The translations under genes were made by a program, and so were the position numbers. Below, piece after piece: positions 13,688 to 42,184 of a stretch of DNA of 64,000 nt. Where the stretch lies: NCBI GenBank assembly GCA_938083505.1, contig CALKCF010000007.1, positions 64,001 through 128,000 of the forward strand, in the 5' to 3' direction. The stretch is from an uncultured archaeon. Lineage in GTDB: Archaea > Thermoproteota > Nitrososphaeria_A > Caldarchaeales > Wolframiiraptoraceae. Position 1 is the first letter of the stretch. Each line of letters starts with the position of its first letter. Below the pieces are notes generated by a model. It saw only the letters and a program-made list of their open reading frames with translations. It had not been told where the DNA came from and ran no database searches.

Positions 13688-14371
13688 TTGTCAGAGAAAA
13701 TAGAGGTAATAGTGCCTGAGGAGGGCGAGGTTTTCGACATAGAACTCGAGGAAGACTTACTTGAGGCGAATAGAAGAATAGCTGAAGAAAATAAGCAACT
13801 TTTAGAAAAGCACGGCGTAAGGGCAATCGATGTAATGGGCTCGGTCGGTTCGGGGAAGACGACGCTTATTGAGAAGTTAATAGCTCTACTAAAGGACAAG
13901 CATAGAATTGCTGTATTCGGTGGCGATGTTACAACGACAATAGACGCCGAAAGATTAAGGAAGTCTGGTGCTAAGACGCTACAGATAAACACCGGCAAAG
14001 AATGTCACCTTGATGCCAACCTTGTGAGAAAGGCACTGAACAAAATGGACCTGAATAACATTGACGTGCTTTTTATAGAAAATGTCGGAAATCTGATATG
14101 TCCAGCTGAATTCCCACTCGGAACAGACAGCAGGGTGGTCGTCATAAGCGTGACTGAGGGCCCTTACACACCATTGAAGCATCCTTACATATTCATGGAG
14201 GCGGATGTTGCTGTTATCAATAAGATAGATTTAGCAGAAGCTATGGGTGTGGACGTTGATGAGCTGGAGGCTAAGATAAGAAAAGTTTCTCCAGACATCG
14301 TGGTCGTTAAGACGAGTTGCAAAACCGGTGAAGGTATAGAAAAAGTGGCCAAAGCGCTAGGTCTGTTGTAG
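13688..14371 (+). CDS. hypB: Hydrogenase nickel incorporation GTPase HypB
   Basis: GSVGSGKTT, ECHLDA, ENVGNLICPA and NKID. A TTG start after GAGGGA is inferred. Confidence 0.95.
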   Translation: MSEKIEVIVPEEGEVFDIELEEDLLEANRRIAEENKQLLEKHGVRAIDVMGSVGSGKTTLIEKLIALLKDKHRIAVFGGDVTTTIDAERLRKSGAKTLQINTGKECHLDANLVRKALNKMDLNNIDVLFIENVGNLICPAEFPLGTDSRVVVISVTEGPYTPLKHPYIFMEADVAVINKIDLAEAMGVDVDELEAKIRKVSPDIVVVKTSCKTGEGIEKVAKALGLL

Positions 14372-14373
14372 AA

Positions 14374-14745
14374 ATGCACGAGTTCTCCATAATGTCGCAG
14401 CTTGTGGAGAGAGTGGTTGAGGAAGCCAGAAAAAGAAATGCAAAGAGGGTTATAGAGGTTGAGCTATACGTTGGCCAACTATCCTTCCTTAATTCAGAAC
14501 AGATGCGCTTTGCATACAGTGTGCTTTCCAAGGGTACGATCCTAGAAAATTCTCATTTAATCATTAACATAATAGATGCTCGCGTTAAGTGTGAAGTCTG
14601 TGGGTTTGATGGTAAGCCAGACTACATCGATGATGCCTCTTATCACGTTTCAGCACCCCTCTTCTTATGTCCTGTATGCGGTAGCCCTGTAGAGGTTCTA
14701 GAGGGGAGGGGTTGCATTATAAGAAGGGTGAAACTCGAGATTTAG
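14374..14745 (+). CDS. hypA: Hydrogenase nickel metallochaperone HypA
   Basis: MHE N-terminus and two CxxC motifs. Confidence 0.95.
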   Translation: MHEFSIMSQLVERVVEEARKRNAKRVIEVELYVGQLSFLNSEQMRFAYSVLSKGTILENSHLIINIIDARVKCEVCGFDGKPDYIDDASYHVSAPLFLCPVCGSPVEVLEGRGCIIRRVKLEI

Positions 14746-14792
14746 GTATTATGAGTAGAGTTTATTAGTTAGAGCAGCGCAATTTTATAAAA

Positions 14793-15008
14793 ATGTGTTT
14801 GGCAGTACCTGCAAAGGTTGTAGAAAAAGTCGGCAATGTAGCTAAGGTAGATTTTGGCGATAATACACTTAGAGAGGTAGACGTGTCGCTCGTAGACGTT
14901 TCCGTAGGACAATACGTGCTTGTTCACGCAGGCTATGCCATACAGGTGCTTGACGAAGATGAGGCGCTCAAGACGATAGAGCTATTGTCAGAGATACTTA
15001 GCGAATAG
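14793..15008 (+). CDS. hypC: Hydrogenase chaperone HypC
   Basis: MCLAVPAKV and VLVHAGYA. Confidence 0.96.
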   Translation: MCLAVPAKVVEKVGNVAKVDFGDNTLREVDVSLVDVSVGQYVLVHAGYAIQVLDEDEALKTIELLSEILSE

Positions 15009-15032
15009 TGGTTACGTCATTGGTGACGTTAT

Positions 15033-16118
15033 TTGAGTTTTTTGAAGGAACTCAGGAATAGGGAGTTAGCATATGCGCTTGTGCGCAAAATTAAGGAGGT
15101 CTTCCCAAAGAAACCGATTAAGATATGTCATGTATGCGGCACGCACGAATGGACAATAGTCCATTATGGTTTACGTTCACTTCTTCCAGATAATATAGAG
15201 CTTATTGCCGGGCCTGGTTGTCCTGTATGCATAACCCCTGCGTTGGACATAGACCAAGCCGCCGAGCTAGCACTCGAGGGCAAGACTGTTACAGTATTCG
15301 GGGACGTGTCAAGATCAGTTGGCGTCAAATACTCCTTAGAGGCTGTGAGGTCAGAAGGTGGTAACGTGAAGATCGTTTATAGCATACTCGACGCTCTAAA
15401 GATAGCTAAATCGGACAAAAGCAAGGAGGTCGTATTCTTCGCAGTAGGGTTCGAGACTACTGCTCCACTCACCGCATTGCACATACTTCGGACACCACCA
15501 AAAAACTTCTCGATACTCAGCTCGCATAGATACGTGCCACCCGCAGTCATCACCCTTTACTCCCGTGGTAAGCTGGAAATGGATGGTGTAATAGCGCCAG
15601 GTCATGCCACGACGATAAGCGGCTTGAAGACTTACGAGCCCTTAGCTAAAGAGCACGGCATTCCCGTCGTTGCCTCCGGTTTCGAGCCTGTGGACGTTCT
15701 AATGTCCATAATCATGTTAGTTAAGCAGATATCAGAAGGCAAGGCAGAAGTACTGAACCAGTATTCAAGGTCTGTTACATGGGAAGGCAATGTTAAGGCG
15801 ATGCAGACGATTAACCGCGTCTTTGAACTAACTGACGCTCATTGGAGGGGCATAGGTACGATAGAGCACACGGGCTTCGTCTTGAGGAAGGAGTTTAAGG
15901 ATTACGATGCAAGATACAAGTACGGCCTGAAGAACGTGAACTATGCCAGCGAGATGCATCCAGGATGCAGGTGCGCTGAGATTATGCTTGGAAAGATTAA
16001 ACCTACGCAGTGCCCACTTTACATGAAAGTATGTAAGCCAAGTAAGCCCGTCGGGCCGTGTATGGTCTCAATCGAAGGCACGTGTAGAATTTGGGCAACT
16101 CATATTGCATTCTCATAA
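15033..16118 (+). CDS. hypD: Hydrogenase maturation protein HypD
   Basis: CGTH, GPGCPVC, GFETT, PGH and GPCMVSIEGTC. Confidence 0.96.
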   Translation: MSFLKELRNRELAYALVRKIKEVFPKKPIKICHVCGTHEWTIVHYGLRSLLPDNIELIAGPGCPVCITPALDIDQAAELALEGKTVTVFGDVSRSVGVKYSLEAVRSEGGNVKIVYSILDALKIAKSDKSKEVVFFAVGFETTAPLTALHILRTPPKNFSILSSHRYVPPAVITLYSRGKLEMDGVIAPGHATTISGLKTYEPLAKEHGIPVVASGFEPVDVLMSIIMLVKQISEGKAEVLNQYSRSVTWEGNVKAMQTINRVFELTDAHWRGIGTIEHTGFVLRKEFKDYDARYKYGLKNVNYASEMHPGCRCAEIMLGKIKPTQCPLYMKVCKPSKPVGPCMVSIEGTCRIWATHIAFS

Positions 16119-16160: not shown

Positions 16161-17276
16161 ATGAATACACGACAAGAATCGCCAGATTACGTAAGAATAA
16201 GCCTTGCCGCAGCCATGACCTTAGGGTTGGTGAATGGTACGTTCTTCAGGGGTGCAACCCTTTATTGCGTTAACCTCCTCTTAACGTACAGTGATGGGTG
16301 TATAGGAAGGTGCGCATACTGTGGGCTTTCTAGAAGCAGGGCTTTAGAGAAAGACTGGACTGACTACAGCTTCATACGCGTTAATTGGCCGATGGTTAGC
16401 TTAGATGAGGTCATTGAAAGGATGGATTCATGTCCGCATGTTGAAAGGGTTTGCATCTCGATGGTGACGAATCGCAGGGCACCTAAGGACTGTCTAACTG
16501 TCGTCAAGAGATTGCGTGAAAAAACGGACTCGATATCCTGCCTGATAACGCCGACAATAATAGACCGTAACTGGCTTGAAGAAATGAAGAGGGCAGGAGC
16601 CGATAAGATAGGTATAGCGATAGATGCTGCGACACCAGAGCTTTTCGATAAGCTCAGGGGTAGATGGGTTGGAGGGCCTCACCGCTGGGAGAAATACTGG
16701 AATACAGTCAAAGAGGCTGTAGAAGTATTCGGTAGGTATAATGTCGGTATTCACTTGATAGTTGGCCTTGGTGAGACAGAAGAGGAGATGGTCAAGTGCA
16801 TACAAGCAGCTTACGATATTGGCGCATTAACACATCTCTTTTCATTCTTCCCGGAGGATGGGTCAGTTATGGAAAGGCACCCCCAACCTCCAATCGGACA
16901 ATATAGGCGCATACAACTTGCCCGTTACTTGATCAATAAGGGTCTAGCGGTCGTTGACGGCATGCGTTTTGACAGCTCTGGAAGATTGATAGATTTCGGC
17001 TTAGAAAAAGATGTGCTCGATGAGGTGATAGAGAGCGGACTTCCGTTTATGACGTCAGGATGTGCTAGCAAGAAAAGGGATAATGCGTGCAATAGACCCT
17101 TCTCGGACTATACACCATACCACGCCCTAATCGGTGAGATGCGCAATTATCCCTTCGTACCAACAAAGGATGACATTAAACTGATAAGAAGACAGCTACA
17201 GGATTATTCAAACATTCCAGTCAAAGTATGGGTGGAAGGGCTAGAAAGTCTATTAGGTTGTATTGAACATATTTAG
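16161..17276 (+). CDS. lipS1: Radical SAM lipoyl synthase subunit, LipS1-like
   Basis: SPDYVRISLAAAMTLG, LLLTYSDGCIGRCAYCGL and C-terminal FMTSGC..CNRP; context with a second radical SAM and a lipoate ligase. The S1 versus S2 label is from recollection. Confidence 0.78.
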   Translation: MNTRQESPDYVRISLAAAMTLGLVNGTFFRGATLYCVNLLLTYSDGCIGRCAYCGLSRSRALEKDWTDYSFIRVNWPMVSLDEVIERMDSCPHVERVCISMVTNRRAPKDCLTVVKRLREKTDSISCLITPTIIDRNWLEEMKRAGADKIGIAIDAATPELFDKLRGRWVGGPHRWEKYWNTVKEAVEVFGRYNVGIHLIVGLGETEEEMVKCIQAAYDIGALTHLFSFFPEDGSVMERHPQPPIGQYRRIQLARYLINKGLAVVDGMRFDSSGRLIDFGLEKDVLDEVIESGLPFMTSGCASKKRDNACNRPFSDYTPYHALIGEMRNYPFVPTKDDIKLIRRQLQDYSNIPVKVWVEGLESLLGCIEHI

Positions 17277-17305: not shown

Positions 17306-18298
17306 ATGGATCAGTGCTTTGGCCTAAAATTTGACGAGCTTAAACCATTGATAGAAAAAGCGTGGACGATGACGCGTACAAACTTCCCAGAAGAGGTCCA
17401 TTTCTACTTTCCGGACATGGTGTACATTGAAACATCGTTCTATAGACCCACAAATGTTTTTCGCTTCCCTGGAATATCGATAACTGGCACAGTCTGCAGA
17501 TTACAATGTGATCATTGTAAGGGTGCGCTCTTGAAGAGTATGCTTCATGTAACCACACCCGATGCCTTATTTGATGTATGCTTTAGGGTAAAAGAGGCCG
17601 GTGGTGTTGGTTGCCTTGTGACTGGCGGTAGCCTTGAAGATGGAAGCGTTCCAATAAAGAAATTCATACCTGTGTTAAAGAGGATAAAAGATGAGCTAGG
17701 ACTTCATGTAGTAGTACACACAGGCTTGGTTGACGAGGAACTTGCTGAAGGTCTGGCTTATGCTGAAATTGATGCTGTTATGATAGATATAGTAGGCTCT
17801 GATGAAACTATAAATGGTGTGCTGAAGTTAAATAAAACAGTTGCAGACTACGAAAGGTCTTTGAAAAATCTGAAGAAATATGATGTACCTATGGTGCCGC
17901 ATATAGTTGCTGGCATACATTACGGTCAGATTCTGGGCGAGAAGAAAGCCGTAGAGATCGTTTCTAAATATAGACCAGAGGCTCTTGTGATAGTTGCTTT
18001 GATGCCTCTTGCCAACACACCTATGGAAAACGTCTCCCCTCTTAGCCCGATAGATGTCATACGTGTAATTCTTTTTGCTAGGTTTTTAATGCCAAATATT
18101 CCTATAACATTAGGCTGCGCCAGGCCAAGAGGTGCGTTAAGGTCTGCGACAGATGTTTTGGCATTAAAGGCTGGAGTTAACGCCATCGCCTATCCTAGCG
18201 AAGAAGCTTACAAGTTTGCAAGAAGACTAGGTCTGAACGTCGTCGTCCATGAGAGTTGTTGCTCATTGATCTATCGGAATATTGCTTTGAAGGTGTAG
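17306..18298 (+). CDS. lipS2: Radical SAM lipoyl synthase subunit, LipS2-like
   Basis: ISITGTVCRLQCDHC, GCLVTGG, LGCARPRG and ESCCS; adjacent to the lipoate ligase. Confidence 0.78.
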   Translation: MDQCFGLKFDELKPLIEKAWTMTRTNFPEEVHFYFPDMVYIETSFYRPTNVFRFPGISITGTVCRLQCDHCKGALLKSMLHVTTPDALFDVCFRVKEAGGVGCLVTGGSLEDGSVPIKKFIPVLKRIKDELGLHVVVHTGLVDEELAEGLAYAEIDAVMIDIVGSDETINGVLKLNKTVADYERSLKNLKKYDVPMVPHIVAGIHYGQILGEKKAVEIVSKYRPEALVIVALMPLANTPMENVSPLSPIDVIRVILFARFLMPNIPITLGCARPRGALRSATDVLALKAGVNAIAYPSEEAYKFARRLGLNVVVHESCCSLIYRNIALKV

Positions 18299-18302: not shown

Positions 18303-19883
18303 TTGCGTCAGTGGAGGCTTATTGATACGGGTCTTAGACCTGCATCTGAGAATATGACACTTGATGATGTGATATTGGAATGTAAAGCAAGGAACTTGGT
18401 GCCAGATACTGTAAGATTTCTGAGGTTCAGTCCACCAGCGGCCCTCGTTGGGTATCACCAAGACGTCTATCAAGAGGTCCGATTGGAGTATGCTAAAGAG
18501 AACGGAATAGATGTTAACAGGAGGCTAACAGGAGGTGGTGCTATATACTTTGATAGCTCTACTATTGGATGGGAGGTGATAGCATCAAAGCGATCACTAT
18601 GCACGAACTACTCCTTAGAATGGATCTTCAAGACGGTGTGCGAGTGTGTCGTAAATGCCCTAAAAGAGTTTGGTTTAGACGCTTGCTTCCGACCTAGGAA
18701 CGACATAGAGATAAATGGCAGGAAGATATCGGGTACGGGTGGTGTTGAGAGAGGGGATGCTTTTCTCTTCCAAGGTACACTTCTTGTAGACTTTGATGTC
18801 GAGACCATGATAAAGGTTCTAAAGATTCCGATAATAAAACTCAAGGGTAAGGAGCTCGAATCAGTGAAGAGGAGGGTAACCTGCCTTAAGTGGGAGTTAG
18901 GTTATACGCCAGATTATGAGGAGATCAGGAACGCATTAATCAAAGGTTTCAAAGAAGTTCTTAACATAGAACTCAAATTTGGTGACCTTACTGATTATGA
19001 GTTAGAACTTTTTGAAAAAAGTTTACCATGGTTTAGTTCTGAAGAATGGGTGTTCATGGATAGACGTTCACCAAAAGGTTCTACTATAGTGCATGCGGTT
19101 GATAAGAAGCCAGGTGGTGTCATTCGTGTATCATTGAATGTAGATAAGGATACAAACGTTATAAAAAGTGTGCTAATAACAGGTGATTTTTTTATATTCC
19201 CACAAAGAGCAATCATGGATCTGGAGGCTGCTCTTAAGTTCATCCCGGCAGATGCTGATAAGATAAGGGAAATAATTCACAGGGTATTTGAGGAAAAACA
19301 GGTTAGGACGCTCAGCTTAACTGAAGGTGACTTCGTGGAGCTTATACTCGAGGCCTTAGAGAAAACTGAGCTTGAATCTTACGGCATAGATGCTGATGAA
19401 ATTAACAATATATATCCAATAACAAATGATGTCAAGTCAACATTGAAGAACGGTTTTGATTATATGCTGTTACCATACTGCTCTAAAATGGTGTCATGTA
19501 TGTATAGAAAAATTGATGGGTGTATAAAATGTGGTGAGTGTACAGTTGGTGAGGCATACCGTTTAGCAGAAGAATTTGGTCTAAAGCCCATAACAATTCA
19601 TAACTTTGAACACCTAATAGAGGTTTTGAAGGTGATGAAGGTTAAAGGTGCAAGGGGCTTTATTGGGTGCTGTTGTGAAGCATTCTATGTAAAACATCGT
19701 GACGAGATGAGAGAGGTGGGTGTGCCAGGGATAATAATAGATATCGAGGACAAAACTTGCTATGACTTGGGAAAGGCAGAAGAGGCATATAGGGGCAACT
19801 TCGAGGCCCAGACTAGACTGAATCTGCCCCTCATCAAGAAGATCTTGGTAGCATCCTTAAAAATGGGTGGTAAAAATGCATAA
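18303..19883 (+). CDS. Lipoate-protein ligase LplA-LplB fused to a Cys-rich DUF116-like domain
   Basis: RRLTGGGAIY, NDI...RKISGTG, LplB-like GGVIRV..ITGDFF..LEAAL, then LPYCSK..C..CIKCGEC..GCCC..C. Confidence 0.88.
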   Translation: MRQWRLIDTGLRPASENMTLDDVILECKARNLVPDTVRFLRFSPPAALVGYHQDVYQEVRLEYAKENGIDVNRRLTGGGAIYFDSSTIGWEVIASKRSLCTNYSLEWIFKTVCECVVNALKEFGLDACFRPRNDIEINGRKISGTGGVERGDAFLFQGTLLVDFDVETMIKVLKIPIIKLKGKELESVKRRVTCLKWELGYTPDYEEIRNALIKGFKEVLNIELKFGDLTDYELELFEKSLPWFSSEEWVFMDRRSPKGSTIVHAVDKKPGGVIRVSLNVDKDTNVIKSVLITGDFFIFPQRAIMDLEAALKFIPADADKIREIIHRVFEEKQVRTLSLTEGDFVELILEALEKTELESYGIDADEINNIYPITNDVKSTLKNGFDYMLLPYCSKMVSCMYRKIDGCIKCGECTVGEAYRLAEEFGLKPITIHNFEHLIEVLKVMKVKGARGFIGCCCEAFYVKHRDEMREVGVPGIIIDIEDKTCYDLGKAEEAYRGNFEAQTRLNLPLIKKILVASLKMGGKNA

Positions 19884-20946
19884 GTTTGACGTGATAGTGG
19901 TTGGTGGTGGCCCTGCAGGTACTGCGTGTGCGATCAGATGTGCTAAAATGGGATTCAGGACAATGTTATTGGAAAAATCAACAAGTTACAGAAAGAAATT
20001 CTGCGGCGGCGTCACACCAACCGTAACAAGAAATTTGATAGAATTCGAGCTAGGGTTGAGAATACCTCAATCGGTGCTGTCTGTCCCAGAAAGTTTAGGA
20101 CTTTTCTACGTACCTCCCAGTGGGAAGTGCAACGGTGGTACAATGAAGAATTATAAATTACTTAATTTGCGTAGGGTTGACTTTGACGAATGGTTAAGGG
20201 AAGAGGTTAAGACACATAACGTCGACCTTTTATACCGTGCAGAATTTCTCGAGTTGAAGTTAGGAAAGGATAACCTGTTAAAGGTGAATGTGAATGGTAG
20301 TCTGGAGGTCTTTGAAGCTACTTATGTGGTTGGTGCTGACGGGGCTATTTCAAAAGTTCGTTCTTGCCTGTTTCCAAACTATAGGTCTAAAATACTCACT
20401 GTTGTACAAGAAGTTTGGGAGGGGGAAGGAGACTTTAAAGATAATTTTTACATAATTCTTAACAGCAAAATCGTGCCAACTTATGGTTACGTAATTCCTA
20501 AAGACGGAAAAATTCTTGTAGGTTTTGGCTTTGAAAGTGGAAGGATTAACTTGCAGCTTTGTATGACCAAACTTTTGAGTTTACTAAAAGATGAGTTTTC
20601 GTTCAAACCTGTGGAGATGAGTGCAAGAGAAATCGCACCCGTACCGTTCGCTATTTCACCTATAGGTCTCGAGAATGTCGTACTCGTTGGAGATGCCTGT
20701 GGGTTATGTAACCCCTTCTCAGGAGAAGGTATAAGATTTGCGATCGAGAGTGGTGTGGCCGCTGCGGAATCTATTAAGATATCACAAGAAGAGAACGCAA
20801 AGTTGACATCGGTTTATGAATCAAAAATAGATGGGTTAAGGGATTTTTTGCTCAGAATGTATGCATTCGTAAACGAGCTTGATGATGAAAAGAGAGAGGA
20901 TTTCGTCAGGAAGGAACTGTCACGCCTTAACGTATTCGGTATATAA
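19876..20946 (+). CDS. FAD-dependent geranylgeranyl-reductase-family oxidoreductase (LipT-like by context)
   Basis: GGGPAG, KFCGG, GADG and GDACG..PFSGEGI; overlaps the ligase stop. Confidence 0.75.
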   Translation: MHKFDVIVVGGGPAGTACAIRCAKMGFRTMLLEKSTSYRKKFCGGVTPTVTRNLIEFELGLRIPQSVLSVPESLGLFYVPPSGKCNGGTMKNYKLLNLRRVDFDEWLREEVKTHNVDLLYRAEFLELKLGKDNLLKVNVNGSLEVFEATYVVGADGAISKVRSCLFPNYRSKILTVVQEVWEGEGDFKDNFYIILNSKIVPTYGYVIPKDGKILVGFGFESGRINLQLCMTKLLSLLKDEFSFKPVEMSAREIAPVPFAISPIGLENVVLVGDACGLCNPFSGEGIRFAIESGVAAAESIKISQEENAKLTSVYESKIDGLRDFLLRMYAFVNELDDEKREDFVRKELSRLNVFGI

Positions 20947-23709: not shown

Positions 23710-23794
23710 AACACAAGCTAATTATTTTTAAAGAATTTTAAAAAATAAGTTAATGTTTATTTGTAATTAGGTTTGATAAAAAAATGTGGTAGTT

Positions 23795-32849: not shown

Positions 32850-33011
32850 CCACCTATTATTCGTATAGTCGACCTAACTTAACTCTAGTACACATATATT
32901 CTAAACAGAGCAATATAATAGTTTTTTGCTTGTATGGACTAGATACATTTGCGTTTATGTCAAGATGAAGGTTAAGTGCGTTATCTATGAATAATGATCA
33001 AGTGTTAAAAA

Positions 33012-33482
33012 TTAAAGCCCGCATTCTTTTTCAATGATCTTAACACATTTTGGTACAGCAGCTTTCACACTCTCGCTTAACCCCTCTTGGTAGCAGCCCG
33101 GTTTTTGAATAGTTATCCCAAAAATCACTACTTCGTCCGGAAAAGATTCTCTATCAATAGCTTTAACGAGCTCGAGAGATGTTGCGAGGTCCATATCGTG
33201 AAAACCGATGAATCTTTTAGGTGTTGCTTTTAAGTCTTCAAGTGTCAATCTTAGGATTTTTCCAGGGGCAGTATCTTCTTCAACTAAAGCGTCTATAATT
33301 ATTGCTTTCTTATAACCAAGCATAGACTCTGCCACAGTTAAACCTCCAACGCATAGTTCTATGATGTCAACAAAGTCACCTAACCACCTCTTTAACTCGG
33401 ATGCGACAATTAAGCCTACGGCATCATCGCCAAGTATCGGATTACCAAGTCCTATTATGACTATCTCTCGCCTTCCCTTCAA
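33012..33482 (-). CDS. Hydrogenase maturation endopeptidase
   Basis: IGLGNPILGDDAVG, IIIDA and FHD. Confidence 0.93.
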   Translation of the reverse strand: MKGRREIVIIGLGNPILGDDAVGLIVASELKRWLGDFVDIIELCVGGLTVAESMLGYKKAIIIDALVEEDTAPGKILRLTLEDLKATPKRFIGFHDMDLATSLELVKAIDRESFPDEVVIFGITIQKPGCYQEGLSESVKAAVPKCVKIIEKECGL

Positions 33483-34939
33483 GGACGCTTTATCTCAGCT
33501 ACGAGCCTTCCATTCGTATCATATATGCGTACATCAAGTGGTATTTGACCTGGCAATGCGTGCGTTCCACAAGCCAAACATGGATCGTAGGCTCTAAATG
33601 CCATCTCTATCATGTTAAGTAAACCGTCGCTTATCTTACCGTAACTTATGAGCTGTTGTGCAGCCTTCTTCACAGACATACATATACCTGCGTTGTTGTG
33701 GGTCGTTGCAACTATTAGGTTAACGTTGGTTAATATGCCGTCTTGGTCGGTCTTGTAATGGTGTATAAGCGTACCCCTTGGTGCCTCAACGACACCGACC
33801 CCCTCGCTTGGGGTGTCTGTTAGAGGAACCCTGAAGTCCTTTCCGGTTATGTCAGGGTCTCTGCTTAACTCAAGCACCCTTTCAGCGGCATTAAGTATCT
33901 CTATAACCCTCGCCCAATGGTATCCAAGCGTCGCATGAGCTGGCTTACCCAGGGTTTCTTTGAAGTTTTCGTAGGCTTCTTGTGCAAGTGGTGTTGCAAA
34001 TCCATCAGCTACATTAAGTCTACCAAGAGGTCCTACTCTATACACACCGGACGCTTCGCCGTCAACTATTCCTTTCCAACCCAAATTCTTTAAGTATGGG
34101 AACTTAAGATAGGTCCATGGTTCTACATGCTCGCCTATATAATTGAGATAGTCTTTTGGATGGAATTCTGCGTAGATTCTTCCCTTAGGATCTACAATCC
34201 TGATCTTTCCGTCATAATAGTTTACTAGACCCTTTCCGTCAACCAAGCCCATATAGTAGGTCGCATGCTTATACACGTCGCCCATAATTAGGTCAAGGTA
34301 CTTCTGGTTCTTAAGAACGGCATCCTCGAGTATCTTTAGTGTAAATTGGCCGAATTCCACGAGTTTTTTCGCTCCTTCTTCTATTTCTTTTCTGTCATCT
34401 TCTGTCAAAAGTTTAGAGACACCACCCGGAACGGCGCAATTCGGTATTATTGCCCTACCGGCAAGTTTTTCCAAAAGCCTCGTGGCAATCATCCTGGCAT
34501 TTATTACCTTCTTTCCAGTCTCTAGACCAATCTTTCCAATAAGACCAAGAATGTTCCTTTCAGCCCTGGGTGCATCAGGTCCAACAACGAAGTCCGGTGC
34601 AGAAAGTGTATAGAATACTGCTGAGTGGTCATGTATGTAAAATATATTGTAGGCCATTTCCCGTATCTTCTTAGCGGTCTCTGGCAAATTAGCACCGTAA
34701 ACAGCATCCACTGCCTTCGCTGATGCCATATGGTGTGCCCACGGGCAGACACCGCAGATCCTTGGTGTTATTATTGGCATCTCTTCCACGGGCCTTCCTA
34801 TGCAGAACCTTTCGAAGCCTCTGAACTCGACTACTTGGTAATAGGCATCCTTAACATTGCCGACCTCGTCCAAAAATATTGAAATCTTTCCGTGCCCTTC
34901 AAGCCTAGTTATAGGTTGAATCGTTACAACCTTCTTCAT
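33479..34939 (-). CDS. mvhA: F420-non-reducing [NiFe]-hydrogenase large subunit (group 3c)
   Basis: TRLEGH, L1 RICGVC, EAPRG, and L2 DPCLACGTH followed by a cleavable extension. Confidence 0.95.
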   Translation of the reverse strand: MKKVVTIQPITRLEGHGKISIFLDEVGNVKDAYYQVVEFRGFERFCIGRPVEEMPIITPRICGVCPWAHHMASAKAVDAVYGANLPETAKKIREMAYNIFYIHDHSAVFYTLSAPDFVVGPDAPRAERNILGLIGKIGLETGKKVINARMIATRLLEKLAGRAIIPNCAVPGGVSKLLTEDDRKEIEEGAKKLVEFGQFTLKILEDAVLKNQKYLDLIMGDVYKHATYYMGLVDGKGLVNYYDGKIRIVDPKGRIYAEFHPKDYLNYIGEHVEPWTYLKFPYLKNLGWKGIVDGEASGVYRVGPLGRLNVADGFATPLAQEAYENFKETLGKPAHATLGYHWARVIEILNAAERVLELSRDPDITGKDFRVPLTDTPSEGVGVVEAPRGTLIHHYKTDQDGILTNVNLIVATTHNNAGICMSVKKAAQQLISYGKISDGLLNMIEMAFRAYDPCLACGTHALPGQIPLDVRIYDTNGRLVAEIKRP

Positions 34940-35913
34940 TCTCTAACACCCCATACCCTGCGCAGTATTGATCTTGGTAAACTATATCTGTAAAAGATTC
35001 CTAACGGGTCCTTTATCTGTAATATGATTTTTCTGATCTCTTCATCACTCATGCCTGTTTCAACCTCTAGCCCTATCACAGAAGACAGGGCGGATAACAT
35101 CCTAGCACCTTGGTCTTGGGACTCTGGTGTCGGTCCCATGCAACCCCTACAAGGAACGTTCACTGTTAGACATACGGCATCACAACCACCTCTAGTCGCA
35201 GGACCCATACAGATTATACCCTGCTCAAGGAGGCATTTCTCTGGATCTGGGATGGACTGGTGATAACGCTTTATTTCTGTTATCCTTTTCTCCTCACGGA
35301 TATGTTTACACTCATCACAGACAGACTTCATCGAACCGAACACTGTCCCTTTTGGTGGGAGCTTTCCAGAAAGTGCAGCAGTTAATACTTCATCCACCAA
35401 CTTAAGGGGTGGTGGGCAACCTGGTAGGTAATAATCTACATCAACCACTTGATTAAGCGACTTAACGGTCTCAAGAAGTTCCGGTATCGTTAGCTCTTCA
35501 CCATCAAGCCTTGTCAGCTTACAGGGTACCGTTCCCTGCTGATTAATGGTGCTTAAACTCTTTACGTATGCTTTTTGAAGAAGACCATCTTTTGAGGCGA
35601 AATTTGCAAGTCCGGGTATACCACCAAAACAAGCACAAGCTCCAAACGCTATGAGGTTTTTTGCCTTTCTCCTTGCAAGTTTGGCCATCTCTTTCGTCTC
35701 GTCATTGTTCACGGCTCCCTCAAAGAGTACAATGTCTATAGAGCCATCTGGTAACCTCTCTAAGTCCTCTAACTTTAGGTCAACAGCAGTTGGCCAATAA
35801 GCTACCTCCACAGACATTAAGACTTCGATAATTTTCTCACCCAAGTCTAAGAGCGAATAATCACAACCAGCACAGTTTGCCCCAGGTATTATGGCCAGCT
35901 TTGGCTTGTTCAA
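34936..35913 (-). CDS. mvhG: [NiFe]-hydrogenase small subunit
   Basis: CAGC, GACACFGG, PGCPP, VCDEC, ICMGPATRGGC and CRGC. Confidence 0.93.
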   Translation of the reverse strand: MNKPKLAIIPGANCAGCDYSLLDLGEKIIEVLMSVEVAYWPTAVDLKLEDLERLPDGSIDIVLFEGAVNNDETKEMAKLARRKAKNLIAFGACACFGGIPGLANFASKDGLLQKAYVKSLSTINQQGTVPCKLTRLDGEELTIPELLETVKSLNQVVDVDYYLPGCPPPLKLVDEVLTAALSGKLPPKGTVFGSMKSVCDECKHIREEKRITEIKRYHQSIPDPEKCLLEQGIICMGPATRGGCDAVCLTVNVPCRGCMGPTPESQDQGARMLSALSSVIGLEVETGMSDEEIRKIILQIKDPLGIFYRYSLPRSILRRVWGVRE

Positions 35914-36359
35914 ACTACTTCTACCTCCTCCTTTAGTTTTTCTGCAATACGGTTTGGCCCTAACTTCTTTATCTGCTCGACAAATTCTTTCGCAATGTTA
36001 GCAAACCTTTCTCCTTCTGGTGCGGAAATCCATTCTAGCCTCACCCTACCTTTCTCAATACCAAATTGTTCAAGCAACTTATCCAGCAACAACATCCTTT
36101 TTCTGGTTTTATAATTTCCGGATATGTAATGACAATCGCCGGGGTGACAACCAGTCACGAGGACGCCGTCAGCACCGTTCGCGAGAGCCTCTAGTATATA
36201 TACTGGATTAATCCTACCGGAGCACATCACCCTTATTACTTTGAGGTTGTGGGGATACTGTACCCGACTTGTTCCGGCTAAGTCAATTCCAGCATAAGAA
36301 CACCAGTTACATGCAAAAACCACTATATTTGGTTCAAAATTCTCTACCATTTTAATCAC
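35910..36359 (-). CDS. mvhD: [2Fe-2S] hydrogenase delta subunit
   Basis: FACNWCSY, RVMCSGR and GCHPGDCHY. Confidence 0.95.
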   Translation of the reverse strand: MIKMVENFEPNIVVFACNWCSYAGIDLAGTSRVQYPHNLKVIRVMCSGRINPVYILEALANGADGVLVTGCHPGDCHYISGNYKTRKRMLLLDKLLEQFGIEKGRVRLEWISAPEGERFANIAKEFVEQIKKLGPNRIAEKLKEEVEVV

Positions 36360-38335
36360 CTCGTAAGTGCCCTTACCATCGCTAAAATCTGATCATCACT
36401 GAACCCGAGCTGTTGGGCGGCTCCGGATGGACATGCGGCCGCACATACTCCACAACCTTTGCACTTGCTTATATCAACACTTGCAACTTGCTTTCCATCC
36501 TCTTTCTTAACCAAAGATATAGCATCGAAAGCACACAAGGGTTGACATATGCCACAACCGCTGCACAAGTCTTCATTAATCGAGGCCACGTAAGGTACGG
36601 TTTCTACATAACCCTTTGACATCAGCGCTATGGCTGAAGACGCTGCAGCACCTGCCTGAGCCACAGTATCGGGTATGTCCTTTGGTCCTTGCACCGCACC
36701 GGCTAGGAATACTCCATCAACAGATGTCTCTGTAGGTCTAAGCTTTGGATGCAACTCTAACGCAAAACCATCTGGACCTATCGAACATTTTAGCAGTTTA
36801 GCCAATTCTTTGAATGTCGTGTGGGGGACTACACCAGTCTCAAGGACAACTAGGTCTGGCCTGAGTGTTACGACCCTATTTGTGTTTGCATCGAATACAT
36901 CAAAATAGAGGCTTCCATCAGCGTCTTGCAGTATCTCCATCGGGCTACCTCTTATAAACTTAACATTTTCATAATTCCTAATTCTTTCGTAGAACTCTTC
37001 GTAACCTTTCCCGAAGGTCCTAATGTCCCTATAACATATGTAGACTTCCGCATCCGGTATGTAACTTACTATATAGTAAGCATGTTTTATTCCTGCTACA
37101 CATCCAAACCTGCAACAGTATCTAAGGTGTTTTTCATCCCTTGAACCAACACAAAGAATTATCGCAACCTTCTTCGGCTCCTTTCCATCACTTGGTCTTA
37201 CTATGTGACCTTTCGTTGGTCCTGAAGCCGAGACTAACCTTTCTAATTCTAATCCAGTAATCACGTCTTTATACTTACGGTAACCATATTCCGGCATGGT
37301 CTTTGCGACATCGTATAAACTATAGCCGGTGGCTAAAATTATCACACCAACTTCCAGTTCCACTTCTTCTGGTTTCTGGTTAAAATCTATAGCTTTAGTG
37401 GGACAGAACCTCTCGCAGGCTCTACACGTCCCCTTCTGGAAATACATACAGTGTTCAGGGTCAATTACAGGAATAAGCGGTACGGCCTGTGGAAATTCAA
37501 AGTATATTGCCTTTCTTTTCCCAAGCCCCAACTCGAACTCGCTCGGTGCAGTCCATGGACATTTTGTGACACATACGCCACAACCAGTGCATTTTGTCGC
37601 ATCCACGTATCTTGGTTTCTTCAATAATTTAACCTTAAAGTTCCCAACAGAACCACTGATGTCCACAACATCTGTATAGGTGCGAAGTATGATGTTTGGG
37701 TGTCTGCTTACTTCCACCATCAAAGGTGTTAGTATACATTGGGAGCAGTCGAGCGTTGGAAAAGTCTTATCCAATCTTGCCATGTTCCCTCCTATGCTAG
37801 GTCTCGTCTCGACCAGGTGAACTTGGAAACCAGCATTTGCTATGTCAAGTGAGGCCCTAATACCGGCTATTCCACCGCCTATAACAAGTGCTTTTGGTAT
37901 TACCTTTACTTTCTCCACATTCAGCGGTTTTAAAAGCCTAGCTTTGGCGATTGCTGCATTAACTAGTTTAATGGCCTTATCTGTTGCTGCATCTTTTTCC
38001 TTTTCGTGAACCCAAGAACAGTGTTCCCTTATATTAGCCATCTCAAAAAGGTAGGGATTAAGACCGCCCTCTTCAACAGCTTTTTGGAAAGTTGGTTCAT
38101 GCATTCTTGGTGAGCAAGCAGCTACGACGACCCTGTTGAGGTGGCGCTGTTTTATGTCTTCGATTATCATATTCTGACCTGGCTGAGAGCACATGAATTG
38201 ATACTCCTTTGCAACCACGACGTTCGGCACTTTTGATACCTCTTCAATAACTTTATTTATGTCAACTACAGATGCTATGTTTAGACCACAGTGGCATACA
38301 TAAACACCTATCCTGATTTCTTCACTTTCAACCAT
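36356..38335 (-). CDS. hdrA: Heterodisulfide reductase flavoprotein subunit A
   Basis: VCHCG, CSPRMHE, NIREHCSWVH, GGGIAG, KTFPTLDC, inserted and C-terminal ferredoxin domains, GPKDIPD. Confidence 0.97.
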   Translation of the reverse strand: MVESEEIRIGVYVCHCGLNIASVVDINKVIEEVSKVPNVVVAKEYQFMCSQPGQNMIIEDIKQRHLNRVVVAACSPRMHEPTFQKAVEEGGLNPYLFEMANIREHCSWVHEKEKDAATDKAIKLVNAAIAKARLLKPLNVEKVKVIPKALVIGGGIAGIRASLDIANAGFQVHLVETRPSIGGNMARLDKTFPTLDCSQCILTPLMVEVSRHPNIILRTYTDVVDISGSVGNFKVKLLKKPRYVDATKCTGCGVCVTKCPWTAPSEFELGLGKRKAIYFEFPQAVPLIPVIDPEHCMYFQKGTCRACERFCPTKAIDFNQKPEEVELEVGVIILATGYSLYDVAKTMPEYGYRKYKDVITGLELERLVSASGPTKGHIVRPSDGKEPKKVAIILCVGSRDEKHLRYCCRFGCVAGIKHAYYIVSYIPDAEVYICYRDIRTFGKGYEEFYERIRNYENVKFIRGSPMEILQDADGSLYFDVFDANTNRVVTLRPDLVVLETGVVPHTTFKELAKLLKCSIGPDGFALELHPKLRPTETSVDGVFLAGAVQGPKDIPDTVAQAGAAASSAIALMSKGYVETVPYVASINEDLCSGCGICQPLCAFDAISLVKKEDGKQVASVDISKCKGCGVCAAACPSGAAQQLGFSDDQILAMVRALTR

Positions 38336-39210
38336 TAGACCTTCACCTCCTCGAGTAAAACTTCAACCGGACTCATGTTTAGATTTATTCCTAGTTCCTT
38401 TTTATCTAAACCTAAAGCAAGACCTAATAATTGCGTATAGTAAAGTGCCGGAATCGAAATACTCTGGTCACCGGTTATCGTCTTAGCAGCATCTTGCTTT
38501 CCATCAAACATATCTATACAATATGGACATAGACTGGTTATTGCTCTTGAGCCCACAGCCAATGTCCTTTTTATCCTCGTTGCCACAACTCTTATTGCCG
38601 CCTCCGGCGAGTAGGGAAGAATAGCTGCTCCGCAACATTCATATTTTTCAGGATAATCTCTTGCCTTAAGACCTATGGCCTCTATTAATCTATCTAATTT
38701 TAGCGGACCGTTTCTTGTCTCTGGCCTCGGGAACTCTGTCGGTCTAACCAGATGACAGCCGGGATGAGAGGAAACCGGCATTTCCGGCAACTTTCTCTTT
38801 ATCGCGGATGCTATCTTCTCGACGCCTATCCTATCATGTAAAACTTCTACCGGATGATAAACTGTTGCTCTGCCTGTGTACTCTAATCCCTCATCTTTAA
38901 GAAGCTCGTTCACAGCACTCATAAGAGGCGGATTCAACTTTAGCATGTATATCGTTTCCGTTAAGTTTAAATGACAACCGTTACATGGTGCAATAATATC
39001 TAAACCTTGCGACTCAGCCAACGCCATAATCCTTGCACAAGCATAATACGGATAAAACTTACTTATGCCCTTCATTGGAACTCCACAACAGTTCATATCT
39101 TTAGGATACTCTAATTCTACACCTAACAATGGTAACGTAGCCCTTAGAGACAACTCGTAACCATACTGCTTCGTTGCGGTAGTACAACCTAAATAAAGCA
39201 AAAATTTCAT
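38335..39210 (-). CDS. hdrB: Heterodisulfide reductase subunit B
   Basis: Two intact CCG domains: GC..CCG..CNGC and GCH..CCG..CPYC. Confidence 0.93.
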   Translation of the reverse strand: MKFLLYLGCTTATKQYGYELSLRATLPLLGVELEYPKDMNCCGVPMKGISKFYPYYACARIMALAESQGLDIIAPCNGCHLNLTETIYMLKLNPPLMSAVNELLKDEGLEYTGRATVYHPVEVLHDRIGVEKIASAIKRKLPEMPVSSHPGCHLVRPTEFPRPETRNGPLKLDRLIEAIGLKARDYPEKYECCGAAILPYSPEAAIRVVATRIKRTLAVGSRAITSLCPYCIDMFDGKQDAAKTITGDQSISIPALYYTQLLGLALGLDKKELGINLNMSPVEVLLEEVKV

Positions 39211-39731
39211 TAAACAATCCCCTTTAGCTTTTCAAAACCTACTAATAAGACGTGTTGCTTGAATTTCTCAATATCTTTCGGTTTTGGCATCTCAGGTAAG
39301 CCCAGCTCTGTCCTAGAAACTTCTTCAAAATCCTTAGACATTATATACATGGGTTTCTGAATGTGGCCGAGCTCTAGTATGGATTTTGCCATTTCTACAA
39401 AGGATTTTGGAGGCGCTCTTCCCCTTACGATAGCCTCATTCCTGAGTGCCATTACTACTTCAAACGGTGAGAGTCTTTGAGGGCAATATTCCGCACACTT
39501 TAAGCATGCCGAGCATGCCCATATCACGTCACTATTTATAAGCTCGTCAGAGTAGCCTGCCTTCACCAAGGCTACTATCTCGTGAGGTCTATACTTGTCA
39601 ACGACCTTTGCAGCCGTGCATCCGCTGGAACACTTCATGCATTGATAGCATAATTGTGGCCTAAGCTCCTTTACTGTATCTTCCAAGGAGAATTTGAACG
39701 TAAGAATCAGCCTCCTACTCAAAATAAACAT
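39210..39731 (-). CDS. hdrC: Heterodisulfide reductase subunit C
   Basis: CYQCMKCSSGC and WACSACLKCAEYCP. The start codon is uncertain. Confidence 0.92.
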   Translation of the reverse strand: MFILSRRLILTFKFSLEDTVKELRPQLCYQCMKCSSGCTAAKVVDKYRPHEIVALVKAGYSDELINSDVIWACSACLKCAEYCPQRLSPFEVVMALRNEAIVRGRAPPKSFVEMAKSILELGHIQKPMYIMSKDFEEVSRTELGLPEMPKPKDIEKFKQHVLLVGFEKLKGIV

Positions 39732-39889
39732 AACTTCTTAAATTTAAATTTCAAGTATATTTATAATAAGCTTTATTAAAAAACTAATAATGTAAATACT
39801 TTAATTATCAAAAAAAGCTCTGGTCTGGTATTGATTAACATCGTTAGGTAGGTATATATTTATTAGATTGATGTTGAAGATGGGTGTAG
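39732..39889. promoter_or_regulatory. AT-rich divergent promoter region hdrC/hypF
   Basis: Several TTTA(T/A)A-like boxes between divergently oriented genes. Confidence 0.45.
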
Positions 39890-42184
39890 TTGATGAAAAA
39901 TATTAGAGCAGAAATCAGGGTTTCGGGCATAGTCCAAGGAGTAGGCTTTAGACCGTTCGTTTATAGAATCGCTGTTAATAGGGGGCTTAAAGGATTCGTC
40001 CAGAACCTAAAGGACGCGTCGGTTAGGATAATCGTAGAAGGACCTGAATCAGACATAAAGTCATTCTTAGAAGCTCTGGTTAAGGAGAAACCACCTTTAG
40101 CTCGTATAACCAAGAGTGACGTGAGCTACTTAGAGTCAAATAATGAGTTCGTGGAGTTTAAGATACTAGAGAGCTCAAAGCAAAGTTTAGTCGCAGGCTC
40201 TGTGATACCGGCAGATGTGGCAATATGCGACGATTGTGTTAGAGAGCTCCTAGATCCTGTTGATAGACGATTCGGCTACTTCTTTATAACATGTACAAAT
40301 TGTGGACCAAGATTCACTATAATATTGGACACACCATACGACAGGCAAAATACATCCATGAGAGATTTTCCGATGTGTGAAGTGTGTATTTCTGAATATG
40401 AGGATCCCTTAAACAGGAGGTTTCATGCACAAACGATTGCGTGTTCCAAATGCGGTCCAAAAGTTTATCTAACAACCAATGATGGGGAGTTAGTTACATG
40501 TAAAGAACCGATAAAGGAAGCCGCTAAGCTTATTGACGAAGGATACATAGTAGCAATAAAGGGGAACGGTGGCTTTCATGTGGCAACAGCAACGACAATC
40601 TCAGAGCCCATAATAAGGCTTAGGAAGGCTAAGCATAGACGACAGAAACCTTTTGCAATAATGGCTAAAGATTTGAAGACCATAAGATCTTTTGCTATTG
40701 TTAGTGAGCAAGAGGAAGAACTGCTCACGTCCCTAGCGCGCCCTATCGTTTTATTACGCAAAAGCGAGGACTACTATCTATCTAAAGAGATAGCACCAGG
40801 TCTCCATAACATAGGCGTAATGCTACCATATACAGGCTTGCATCTTCTATTGCTACTTAATAGTAAGGAGCCAGCGTACGTGATGACAAGCGCAAACCCG
40901 TCAGGTGAGCCGATAGTTATACAAAATCAAGAAGCCTATGTAAGAATCAAAAGGGACGTTGACTACATGCTCCTTCATGATCGGGAAATTGTTAACAGAT
41001 GCGATGATTCCGTTGTAAGGGTTGTTGACGGCTCTATAAGCTTTATACGCCGTTCAAGGGGTTATGCGCCAGAACCAATTATTTTATCATATGAATATAA
41101 CAAAAATATCTTTGCTTTAGGAGGTGAACTTAACGTTACTGCTTGTATCCTTATGGGCGATAAGGCGTTCTTAACGCAACATATTGGTGACATAGAATGT
41201 GTAGAAACTTATGAGTTTTTGAAGTCGGCAATTCACCACCTTGCTAAGCTTACCAGAGCGCAGCCAGAAGTGATAGCTCACGATCTACATCCAAGTTTTC
41301 ATACAACCAGACTCGCAGAGGAACTAGCTGAAAAGTTTAAGATACCAGCGTTACCTGTCCAGCATCACCACGCGCACGTTGCCTCAGTAATGGCAGAATA
41401 CGGATTAGAAGAAGTTATAGGAATAGCGTGCGACGGGTTCGGTTATGGTAGCGATGGCTTAGCGTGGGGTGGTGAAGTTCTTTTATGCGATGATAACGGT
41501 TATCGTCGTATGGGACATCTGGAGAATCATCCAATGCCAGGTGGTGATCTTGCGACAAAGTATCCAATAAGGATGGCCGCGGGAATACTATTTGGGTCAA
41601 ATTTATGTGAGGAATGGTTATTTTTGAATGCTGATAAACTTCCAAGAGGAAGATACGAAGCAGAATTAATATTAAAACAGCTCAAGAATGGAAAAAATAT
41701 AAAGACTTCGAGCGTTGGTAGGATTTTGGATAGTGTTGCAGCCATATTAGGTATATGTTACGAGAGAACCTACGAAGGTGAACCTCCCATGAAGCTCGAG
41801 TCCGCAGCAATAGGTGGCTCGGACATCTTGAGGCTTAAACCAGAAATAAAAGGCAGGGTCTTGAACACAAAATGCTTGGTAGAATCAATTGCGGAAATAG
41901 CGATAAAAGGATTGGATCCAAAGAAGGTAAGAGACCTTGCTTTCTCAGCCCAGAATTATCTGGCAGTAGGCTTAGCTGAGCTTGCATTGGAAATAGCAAT
42001 CAGTGAAGGTGTGAAGAACATTGCTTTCACGGGTGGTGTGGCATACAACGAACAAATAATGGCGACGGTACGGCGAATTGTTGAGGTTAGAGGTTTTAGG
42101 TTCTATACAAATACGAGGGCTCCACCCGGTGATGGTGGGCTCTCGCTCGGTCAAGCAGCAATCGCAGCTAAATTGAGCAATTAG
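39890..42184 (+). CDS. hypF: Carbamoyltransferase HypF
   Basis: GIVQGVGFRPF, CxxC zinc fingers, QHHHAH and PPGDGGLSLGQ. Confidence 0.97.
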   Translation: MMKNIRAEIRVSGIVQGVGFRPFVYRIAVNRGLKGFVQNLKDASVRIIVEGPESDIKSFLEALVKEKPPLARITKSDVSYLESNNEFVEFKILESSKQSLVAGSVIPADVAICDDCVRELLDPVDRRFGYFFITCTNCGPRFTIILDTPYDRQNTSMRDFPMCEVCISEYEDPLNRRFHAQTIACSKCGPKVYLTTNDGELVTCKEPIKEAAKLIDEGYIVAIKGNGGFHVATATTISEPIIRLRKAKHRRQKPFAIMAKDLKTIRSFAIVSEQEEELLTSLARPIVLLRKSEDYYLSKEIAPGLHNIGVMLPYTGLHLLLLLNSKEPAYVMTSANPSGEPIVIQNQEAYVRIKRDVDYMLLHDREIVNRCDDSVVRVVDGSISFIRRSRGYAPEPIILSYEYNKNIFALGGELNVTACILMGDKAFLTQHIGDIECVETYEFLKSAIHHLAKLTRAQPEVIAHDLHPSFHTTRLAEELAEKFKIPALPVQHHHAHVASVMAEYGLEEVIGIACDGFGYGSDGLAWGGEVLLCDDNGYRRMGHLENHPMPGGDLATKYPIRMAAGILFGSNLCEEWLFLNADKLPRGRYEAELILKQLKNGKNIKTSSVGRILDSVAAILGICYERTYEGEPPMKLESAAIGGSDILRLKPEIKGRVLNTKCLVESIAEIAIKGLDPKKVRDLAFSAQNYLAVGLAELALEIAISEGVKNIAFTGGVAYNEQIMATVRRIVEVRGFRFYTNTRAPPGDGGLSLGQAAIAAKLSN

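Follow-up and report, generated by a model that had tools for sequence, protein, structure and literature searches.

Which disulfide serves HdrABC and HdrD proteins in anaerobes that are neither methanogens nor sulfate reducers is a long-standing gap in anaerobic bioenergetics, and a gene island of a hot-spring archaeon, Candidatus Terraquivivens (Caldarchaeales, Wolframiiraptoraceae), poses this question directly. We analysed a stretch of 64 000 nucleotides (hereafter the window; contig C7:64001-128000) of its 1.15-Mb genome (10 contigs, 98.5% complete), mapping the genes by open reading frame listing and Pfam, NCBIfam and Protein Data Bank (PDB) searches. Between hypB and hypF the window encodes an MvhADG-HdrABC hydrogenase–heterodisulfide reductase, a set of predicted lipoylation genes, an OsmC-family protein, HdrD modules and a lipoylatable H-type protein, GcvH1. 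We consider this carrier a legitimate candidate substrate of the Hdr proteins because the linkage recurs elsewhere, the island is co-inherited, and the genome lacks Mcr, coenzyme M (CoM) synthesis, DsrC and the enzymes of glycine cleavage. The fuller reading, in which lipoyl-GcvH1 would be a dithiol/disulfide shuttle reduced by Hdr-type modules (including Mvh-HdrABC) and oxidised by OsmC, is one whose chances we judge to be evenly balanced. Wolframiiraptoraceae are tungsten-dependent, thermophilic, anaerobic fermenters with a membrane Mbh hydrogenase, and the paper describing the family (PMC9246946) mentions neither Hdr nor lipoate.

The lipoyl carrier, its maturation genes and Mvh-HdrABC

GcvH1 (23786-24223, plus strand; GCV_H, 133 bits) is the sole H-type protein of the island with a lysine at the lipoyl position: K73, within the hairpin ETGKWVGP, aligns with the lipoyl lysine of 1onl, in agreement with the subfamily alignment (A4). 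The protein contains no cysteine. It scores below the cut-off of the gcvH equivalog TIGR00527 (111.7 versus 115.85 bits; GcvH2, 62 bits) and passes the subfamily model NF002270 (136 versus 117), and across an alignment of 53 sequences of its subfamily the hairpin E-T/S-G-K-W-V-G-P is nearly invariant. All GCV_H and Biotin_lipoyl matches in this assembly fall within the window. The GcvH-like carriers of the preliminary description are thereby reduced to one, since GcvH2 has a methionine at the lipoyl position and GcvH3 is broken.

The genes predicted to lipoylate this carrier follow those for [NiFe] maturation. hypB, hypA, hypC and hypD (13607-16118; Pfam cobW, HypA, HupF_HypC and HypD), lipS2, lipS1, lpl and lipT make up a single string of genes, all on the plus strand, with gaps of at most 47 nt and a 17-nt overlap of lpl and lipT at its end. 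Its second half encodes LipS2-type (16161-17276; NF053743, 226 bits, under the cut-off of 270) and LipS1-type (17306-18298; NF053742, 235.5 bits, over the cut-off of 230) radical-SAM lipoyl synthase subunits, a lipoate-protein ligase, Lpl(AB), with a C-terminal cysteine-rich DUF116 part whose translation shows a CxxCxxC motif (18303-19883; Pfam LplA-B_cat, Lip_prot_lig_C and DUF116), and a LipT-like FAD oxidoreductase of the geranylgeranyl-reductase family (19867-20946; FAD_binding_3; TIGR02032, 153 bits). Lpl and LipT, like LipS2, score below the model cut-offs, and LipS1 alone lies above; the Pfam and NCBIfam matches nevertheless bear out the initial assignment of all these genes (LipS1/S2-like, LplAB and LipT-like). 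On the evidence of its sequence and of these genes, GcvH1 is the one lipoylatable carrier of the island and has a maturation route of its own.

The DUF116 part of the ligase carries CxxCxxC and CCC motifs and probably binds a metal or Fe-S cluster. This fusion is kept in the congeners and in two distant loci (L039/L040); other lineages have a plain Lpl of 360–380 amino acids, and the lpl gene of one congener (G006) seems frameshifted. At the other end of the string, the gene directly 5′ of hypB (11876-13444) encodes a radical-SAM protein whose N-terminal zinc ribbon is of HMPTM type (the family of methanopterin-type pterin methyltransferases); congeners keep it in this position.

The hydrogenase and heterodisulfide reductase genes proved to be as first described, i.e. 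a canonical mvhADG-hdrABC set accompanied by hypA-F and a maturation protease. On the minus strand lie hypE (20948-21994; AIRS/AIRS_C), a HycI-type hydrogenase maturation protease identified by its family match (33012-33482), mvhA, mvhG and mvhD (33479-36359; MvhA, 421 bits versus 5odc_F; VhuA/G/D as best NCBIfam matches; FlpD) and hdrA, hdrB and hdrC (36356-39731; Pfam, NCBIfam and PDB matches); hypF follows on the plus strand (39890-42184; Pfam). HdrA (659 amino acids) is full length and canonical, its residues 5-656 aligning with residues 2-648 of 5odc_A (764 bits), and its match to sHdrA (6tjr) is limited to residues 328-571. HdrB can be aligned to 9sfi_C and has both CCG motifs, the ligands of the non-cubane clusters, with C41, C42, C76, C79, C192, C193, C228 and C231 invariant among 50 homologues. 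In the equivalog models of the coenzyme B (CoB)–CoM enzyme, HdrB (186 versus a cut-off of 345) and HdrC (79 versus 160) fall short while HdrA is near-canonical, a divergence that fits a changed substrate, as weak evidence. A second [NiFe] hydrogenase, probably Mbh, is encoded at C4:41685-43707.

Enzymes that would otherwise account for the carrier were sought in the whole genome. GcvT, GcvP, the E2 catalytic domain, McrA, ComA and DsrC were not found, nor was GcvT found in five congeners, so that neither methanogenic CoM chemistry nor a glycine cleavage system, either of which would have undercut the original proposal, is available here. No other lipoyl acceptor or lipoate-dependent enzyme needing a lipoyl relay was found in this assembly. 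The preliminary description had also listed GcvP/T, lipoamide dehydrogenase, 2-oxoacid dehydrogenase, mcr, dsrC, TusA/DsrE and rhodanese as missing from the window, which holds for the window itself (no search for rhodanese was made) and not genome-wide for LpdA, TusA and DsrE: four TusA and two DsrE genes are located on other contigs, and a lipA-lpdA-lipB operon, with genes that overlap or nearly abut, lies 18.5 kb 5′ of the window (C7:43225-46253; L127:7226-10253). LpdA exceeds the TIGR01350 cut-off (516 versus 409 bits), as LipA and LipB exceed theirs, and the operon is predicted to provide a second, canonical lipoylation route together with a dihydrolipoyl dehydrogenase.

Congeners, in addition, encode an orphan canonical GcvH (TIESVKV; L133:8251-8688 in G004 and L134:8049-8486 in G001), with ADP-forming acetyl-CoA synthetases, a pyrF-pyrE fusion and tldD as neighbours. 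The 13.8-kb congener block that holds this gene, pyrF/E and trpA is placed just before the start of contig C7 and is missing from the assembly; because its essential genes (pyrF/E and trpA) are absent from the assembly as well, we attribute this to an assembly gap. Judging from the congeners, the host probably has the canonical orphan GcvH as a second acceptor, and we no longer hold GcvH1 to be the organism's sole lipoyl acceptor.

Inheritance and recurrence of the island

The island was found in the same order in four of the six other species of the genus (G003-G006). Orthologues of HdrB, LipS2, OsmC and GcvH1 occur together in five species of the genus and were jointly not found in G001 and G002 (93-95% complete) or in other genera of the family. 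LpdA, in contrast, is present in 37 of 41 relatives, including relatives without the island. As LpdA is widespread and the island patchy, we regard the island as an accessory unit and LpdA, LipA, LipB and the canonical GcvH as an older, separate set. The pattern of presence shows that species either inherit or lose the island in its entirety, and it was probably transferred horizontally. One congener (G003) has lost GlcD-HdrD1, HdrD2, GcvH3 and NarI-HdrD3 and has a frameshifted osmC, and retains GcvH1, GcvH2, the lip genes and Mvh-HdrABC intact (83-91% identity); this gene content ties the carrier more tightly to Mvh-HdrABC than to OsmC. In the osmC gene in question (L022:19440-19999), one nucleotide has been lost and another gained, so that the region of the first catalytic cysteine is out of frame.

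The linkage of the carrier and LipS1/S2 with Mvh-HdrABC is not unique to this genome, recurring in distant lineages as well as in congeners. Scanning species-representative genomes with the GcvH2/3 alignment, we found the whole cluster in another Nitrososphaeria lineage (L039 and L040; GcvH1 78%, HdrA 74% and LipS2 66% identical), and part of it in L041 and in one Geoarchaeota contig. We looked up 10 remote relatives within the GcvH1 subfamily (50-67% identity); in nine, HdrB/HdrD-type CCG genes lay within 8-10 kb of the carrier. The arrangements include hdrC-hdrB-hdrA-gcvH-osmC-lpl on one strand (L125 and L126, where a DsrE gene is also present), hypFED-lpl-gcvH-hdrD-osmC-hdrCBA-mvhDGA-hycI (L123) and narI-hdrD-gcvH (L138). 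An uncultured genome (L136:584-9562) has, again on one strand, tusA-dsrE-dsrE-dsrE-dsrH-asnC-hdrC-hdrB-hdrA-gcvH-lpl, with an hdrA product of 1267 amino acids to which NfnB-like and MvhD parts are fused and a gcvH start that overlaps the hdrA stop; this locus is a hybrid of a sulfur-relay system and a canonical Hdr with a lipoyl carrier. OsmC stands beside the carrier in L039/L040, L122, L123, L125 and L126. Among about 45 GcvH loci with the canonical hairpin (K followed by A, S or T), Mvh/Hdr genes were nearby in two (one Bathyarchaeum and one Hadarchaeota). The notion that the K-W hairpin is diagnostic of Hdr linkage was rejected, since Aquificae proteins with the same hairpin occur in housekeeping contexts (rnhB, fucA and lpxK).

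A quick maximum-likelihood tree (77 sequences, 112 columns, hairpin columns removed, midpoint root) tentatively placed GcvH1, a clade of lysine-less GcvH2/3 proteins and the carrier beside a true sHdr operon (L014/L034) on one side (SH-like approximate likelihood ratio test, 93), and canonical GcvH, including the family's own orphan GcvH, on the other. The operon at L034 comprises lpl, the carrier, hdrC1-B1, a short hdrA and hdrC2.

OsmC, HdrD modules and lysine-less H-fold proteins

The gene immediately before gcvH1 encodes a predicted OsmC-family thiol peroxidase (23254-23709, plus strand; Pfam OsmC) in which, aligned to 2onf and 1ml8, both catalytic cysteines are kept. Upstream of this pair, on the same strand, lies an AbrB/SpoVT-type regulator (22192-23202; MazE_antitoxin/AbrB N-domain) that is 36% identical to a second regulator, of AbrB-PhoU type (27387-28493, plus strand; PhoU and AbrB domains), which is divergent from gcvH2; the same pairing occurs in other lineages.

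Two HdrD modules are intact. HdrD1 (24263-25432, minus strand; Pfam and NCBIfam), a GlcF/TfrB-like protein with two [4Fe-4S] and two CCG domains, adjoins a GlcD-like FAD oxidase of the VAO family (25434-26864, minus strand; FAD_binding_4 and FAD-oxidase_C). HdrD3 (30868-32085, minus strand; Pfam and NCBIfam), which is DsrK/HdrD-like, overlaps by 4 nt the gene for a NarI/DsrM/HdrE-like membrane cytochrome b (32082-32849, minus strand; Nitrate_red_gam; DsrM, 42 bits), all equivalog scores for these two being under cut-off. The three hdrD-like and two narI-like genes originally counted are therefore to be revised: the third hdrD (28502-29689) is a pseudogene in this genome, and of the supposed narI pair one matches Nitrate_red_gam and the other, even when intact, matches no Pfam family. 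Elsewhere in the genome there are four further HdrD-like or GlcD-HdrD genes (C6:181893-183014, C1:33898-35019, C4:779-3394 and C3:13902-16853), among them one that fuses GlcD and HdrD (983 amino acids) and one at a contig end that shares 53% identity with HdrD1.

The third module (28502-30666) is eroded, as judged against its congener counterparts, in which HdrD2, the membrane protein and GcvH3 are intact (411, 280 and 122 amino acids). HdrD2 is split into three open reading frames (28502-29689, minus strand) by indels of +1 (29322), +1 (28959) and -50 nt (about 28937) relative to intact orthologues of 394-411 amino acids; micro-introns, considered as a cause of the split, were ruled out because these breaks are not inserts. 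The gene for the 280-amino-acid membrane protein survives as a frameshifted remnant (29693-30204, minus strand) from which about 190 bp are deleted, and gcvH3 as a remnant of mixed orientation (30345-30666; pieces 30460-30666 on the minus and 30345-30434 on the plus strand), the last 111 bp of the gene (30345-30455) being exactly inverted relative to congeners. A search for inverted repeats at the ends of this inversion returned only chance-level matches of 8-9 nt. A TGA that might be read as selenocysteine is flagged in GcvH3 matches; the intact orthologues, which carry EHGRK, are plain open reading frames. A second, independent assembly of the probable source run is identical in sequence across 27000-33000.

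GcvH2 (26875-27294, minus strand; GCV_H, 80 bits) has the H-protein fold without a lipoyl lysine (EHGMR), a methionine occupying the lipoyl position, and has no cysteine. Congeners, among which it is 74-81% identical, likewise lack the lysine (EYGTR in one), and because this form is conserved we regard GcvH2 as a maintained lysine-less H-fold protein and not a carrier. GcvH2-type proteins are rare, with five clusters at 50% identity among 1.8 billion representatives. Lysine-less GcvH-fold proteins, with M or R at the lipoyl position, occur in the window and at L039, L040, L041, L042, L051, L056, L061, L072, L121 and L122. Every one has a divergently transcribed AbrB(-PhoU) regulator as partner, and their genes adjoin HdrD/GlcD or MvhD-HdrA genes. 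Bathyarchaeia forms beside Mvh/Hdr branch with the canonical GcvH side of the tree, which indicates that the lysine was lost beside Hdr at least twice. GcvH2 and GcvH3 are perhaps docking or regulatory subunits of HdrD modules, and the lysine-less forms in general may mimic the carrier in docking or regulation.

Possible roles of the carrier and known systems

In the shuttle mechanism that we favour, LipS1/LipS2, Lpl(AB)-DUF116 and LipT would build one dedicated lipoylated H-type protein, GcvH1, whose lipoyl/dihydrolipoyl arm would be a two-electron shuttle common to the island enzymes. Electrons from H2 would pass through Mvh-HdrABC to this arm alongside ferredoxin; alternatively, the potentials being close, Mvh-HdrABC would run in reverse as a confurcating H2 producer, and in a ferredoxin-producing fermenter such H2 evolution could be fed by NADH via LpdA and the carrier. 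Through the HdrD modules the shuttle would exchange electrons with a 2-hydroxy/2-oxo acid couple and with the membrane, OsmC would re-oxidise the arm while reducing hydroperoxides, and the ancestral LpdA of the genome could connect it to NAD(H). OsmC is probably the best-precedented partner of lipoyl-GcvH1 by analogy, as lipoyl/GcvH-like proteins have been proposed as Ohr/OsmC electron donors in a preprint (10.64898/2026.10.01.755906); on the Hdr side, LbpA is essential for sHdr (PMC6067878).

Several points weigh against the shuttle. The decay of one HdrD module in this genome shows that parts of the network can be dispensed with, and two of three supposed carriers are, from their sequences, not lipoylatable at the canonical site. 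The exception among the 10 distant contexts, a Freyarchaeota contig, has gcvH-lpl between Mbh/Nuo-like genes; the housekeeping neighbours of the Aquificae proteins point the same way. In the related family f3, whose carrier is of the same K-W hairpin subfamily, no window-type Hdr/Mvh gene was found by tblastn with the window's proteins within about 20 kb of the carrier in four genomes, and in G032, the one genome of this family that was annotated, the carrier is followed 7 nt on by an AhpC/Redoxin-like protein (L029:2-1000), a predicted second type of thiol-peroxidase partner. Moreover, gene neighbourhood cannot separate a direct substrate from co-regulation, and LpdA, encoded with LipA and LipB, can supply a lipoyl H protein with electrons in place of Hdr. 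The midpoint potential is about -0.29 V for protein-bound lipoamide and -0.14 V for CoM-S-S-CoB. Since lipoamide thus lies far below CoM-S-S-CoB, H2-driven bifurcation to ferredoxin would be near equilibrium; the reaction of 2 H2 with oxidised ferredoxin and lipoyl-S2 would be only slightly exergonic, and the complex may be reversible. Co-folding of HdrB (alignment A3) with GcvH1 (alignment A4) gave a score of 0.00 against a mark of 0.32, which is evidence neither way.

The antioxidant connection could stand by itself: LpdA would pass electrons from NAD(P)H to lipoyl-GcvH1 and on to OsmC, the Hdr/Mvh genes being neighbours by co-regulation or island packaging. The adjacency and common direction of osmC and gcvH1 behind a regulator, the two catalytic cysteines of OsmC, the equivalog-level LpdA in operon with lipA and lipB, the company that OsmC keeps with the carrier in the distant loci named above, and the peroxidase-like neighbour and missing Hdr genes of family f3 all agree with this, and an incomplete glycine decarboxylase complex acting with OsmC in Trichomonas hydrogenosomes (Nyvltova 2016, as cited in the same preprint) is a precedent. 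We nevertheless think it unlikely that peroxide defence is the whole function, since OsmC and GcvH1 are inherited along with Mvh-Hdr while the ancestral LpdA also occurs in relatives that have no island, G003 keeps carrier, maturation genes and Mvh-HdrABC despite its frameshifted OsmC, gcvH forms part of the hdrCBA operons of L125, L126 and L136, and the canonical orphan GcvH of the genus with the LipB/LipA route would suffice for an L protein–H protein–OsmC chain. A second view detaches the carrier from Hdr altogether, the Hdr modules using another low-molecular-weight thiol/disulfide and GcvH1 with its maturation genes being an unrelated passenger (a lipoyl relay or cofactor store). The unfavourable lipoyl potential speaks for it, and the disulfide of non-methanogen Hdr is unknown (PMC9723716); with Hdr-type genes by the carrier in nine of 10 distant contexts, a co-inherited island and no acceptor or enzyme found to need a relay, we hold this view to be distinctly improbable.

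Sulfur handling of the LbpA kind, in which the Hdr modules would act on sulfane sulfur (persulfide or polysulfide) passing to or from the lipoyl arm, in H2-dependent sulfur reduction or in sulfur oxidation, draws on the tentative grouping of GcvH1 with the sHdr-linked carrier in our quick midpoint-rooted tree, on a LipS1/S2-Lpl-LipT set typical of LbpA (PMC10332631), on the four TusA and two DsrE genes of the genome, and on the tusA-dsrEFH genes directly 5′ of hdrCBA-gcvH-lpl in L136 and the DsrE genes of L125 and L126. The architecture, however, is not that of sHdr (HdrA is long and canonical, HdrB and HdrC are unduplicated and Mvh is attached), GcvH1 has no cysteine, so that the two-cysteine LbpA signature is missing, and no TusA or DsrE gene lies within the window; this explanation seems to us very improbable. 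Returning to the shuttle, its most general form would make lipoamide on the E-T/S-G-K-W-V-G-P carrier the physiological disulfide of bifurcating HdrABC and HdrD-type modules in non-methanogenic archaea (Caldarchaeales and Bathyarchaeia), in the role of CoM-S-S-CoB in methanogens or DsrC in sulfate reducers, with the lysine-less paralogues as built-in docking or regulatory subunits; we put this forward tentatively, as possible and somewhat doubtful. If true, lipoate, so far tied to the metabolism of 2-oxoacids and glycine and to sulfur oxidation, would gain a role in H2-linked bifurcation or confurcation and in anaerobic peroxide defence, whereas a link to OsmC and LpdA only would make the locus an ordinary lipoyl-dependent antioxidant system. 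The island is not unique and the Hdr link of its carrier is putative, but it is a good experimental entry point: compact and expressible, it combines a single carrier and the genes for its maturation with a canonical Mvh-HdrABC, a pair of intact HdrD modules and a peroxidase, and congeners provide natural deletion variants, one without the HdrD modules (carrier and Mvh-HdrABC kept) and two without the whole island.

Among known systems, MvhADG-HdrABC of methanogens (5odc and related) shares with the island a full-length HdrA, an HdrB with both CCG motifs and adjacent MvhA/G/D, and differs in that here Mcr and ComA are lacking and HdrB and HdrC score under the CoB–CoM equivalog cut-offs. The NarI/DsrM-like protein and HdrD3 resemble HdrDE/DsrMK, and GlcD with HdrD1 resembles the thiol:fumarate reductase TfrAB in coupling a flavoprotein to a CCG subunit (TfrB being the best NCBIfam match); island scores are far below the equivalog cut-offs of both systems, whose partners, CoM/CoB and DsrC, are absent. 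An orphan lipoyl H protein by OsmC, with LpdA present and no P or T protein, is shared with the Trichomonas hydrogenosome (Nyvltova 2016) and the Hden_1299/1301 pair of Hyphomicrobium (preprint 10.64898/2026.10.01.755906); unlike those, the island pair is surrounded by Hdr/Mvh genes and a second lipoylation route and inherited along with them, and LpdA is encoded outside the island.

The sHdr-LbpA system (Cao et al., 2018, PMC6067878; Tanabe et al., 2023, PMC10332631) likewise encodes a lipoyl H-like protein of one domain together with Hdr-type Fe-S/CCG proteins and dedicated LipS1/LipS2/Lpl/LipT genes, and one sHdr-linked carrier falls, tentatively, on the GcvH1 side of our quick tree. As initially argued, its architecture differs: in place of hdrC1B1A-hyp-C2B2 the island has a long HdrA, unduplicated hdrB and hdrC, MvhADG and hyp genes, adds OsmC and HdrD modules and has no TusA/DsrE in the cluster, and its host family comprises anaerobic fermenters, not sulfur oxidisers (PMC9246946). 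LbpA also has two conserved cysteines, one N-terminal and one C-terminal, with some archaeal LbpAs as exceptions (Cao et al., 2018), whereas GcvH1 and GcvH2 have none. Our literature search found no paper treating LbpA together with MvhADG. Lipoamide as a third dithiol currency beside CoM/CoB and DsrC, as the preliminary description put it, nonetheless overstates the novelty, given LbpA-sHdr and the suggestion of Kohtz et al. (2022; PMC9723716) that in Culexarchaeia, which lack CoM/CoB, the disulfide used by HdrB is borne by GcvH. The Ehe/HdrB cluster of that lineage has a membrane group-4 hydrogenase where the island has a cytoplasmic Mvh-HdrABC, to which the island adds lipoylation genes, OsmC, HdrD modules and lysine-less H-fold paralogues.

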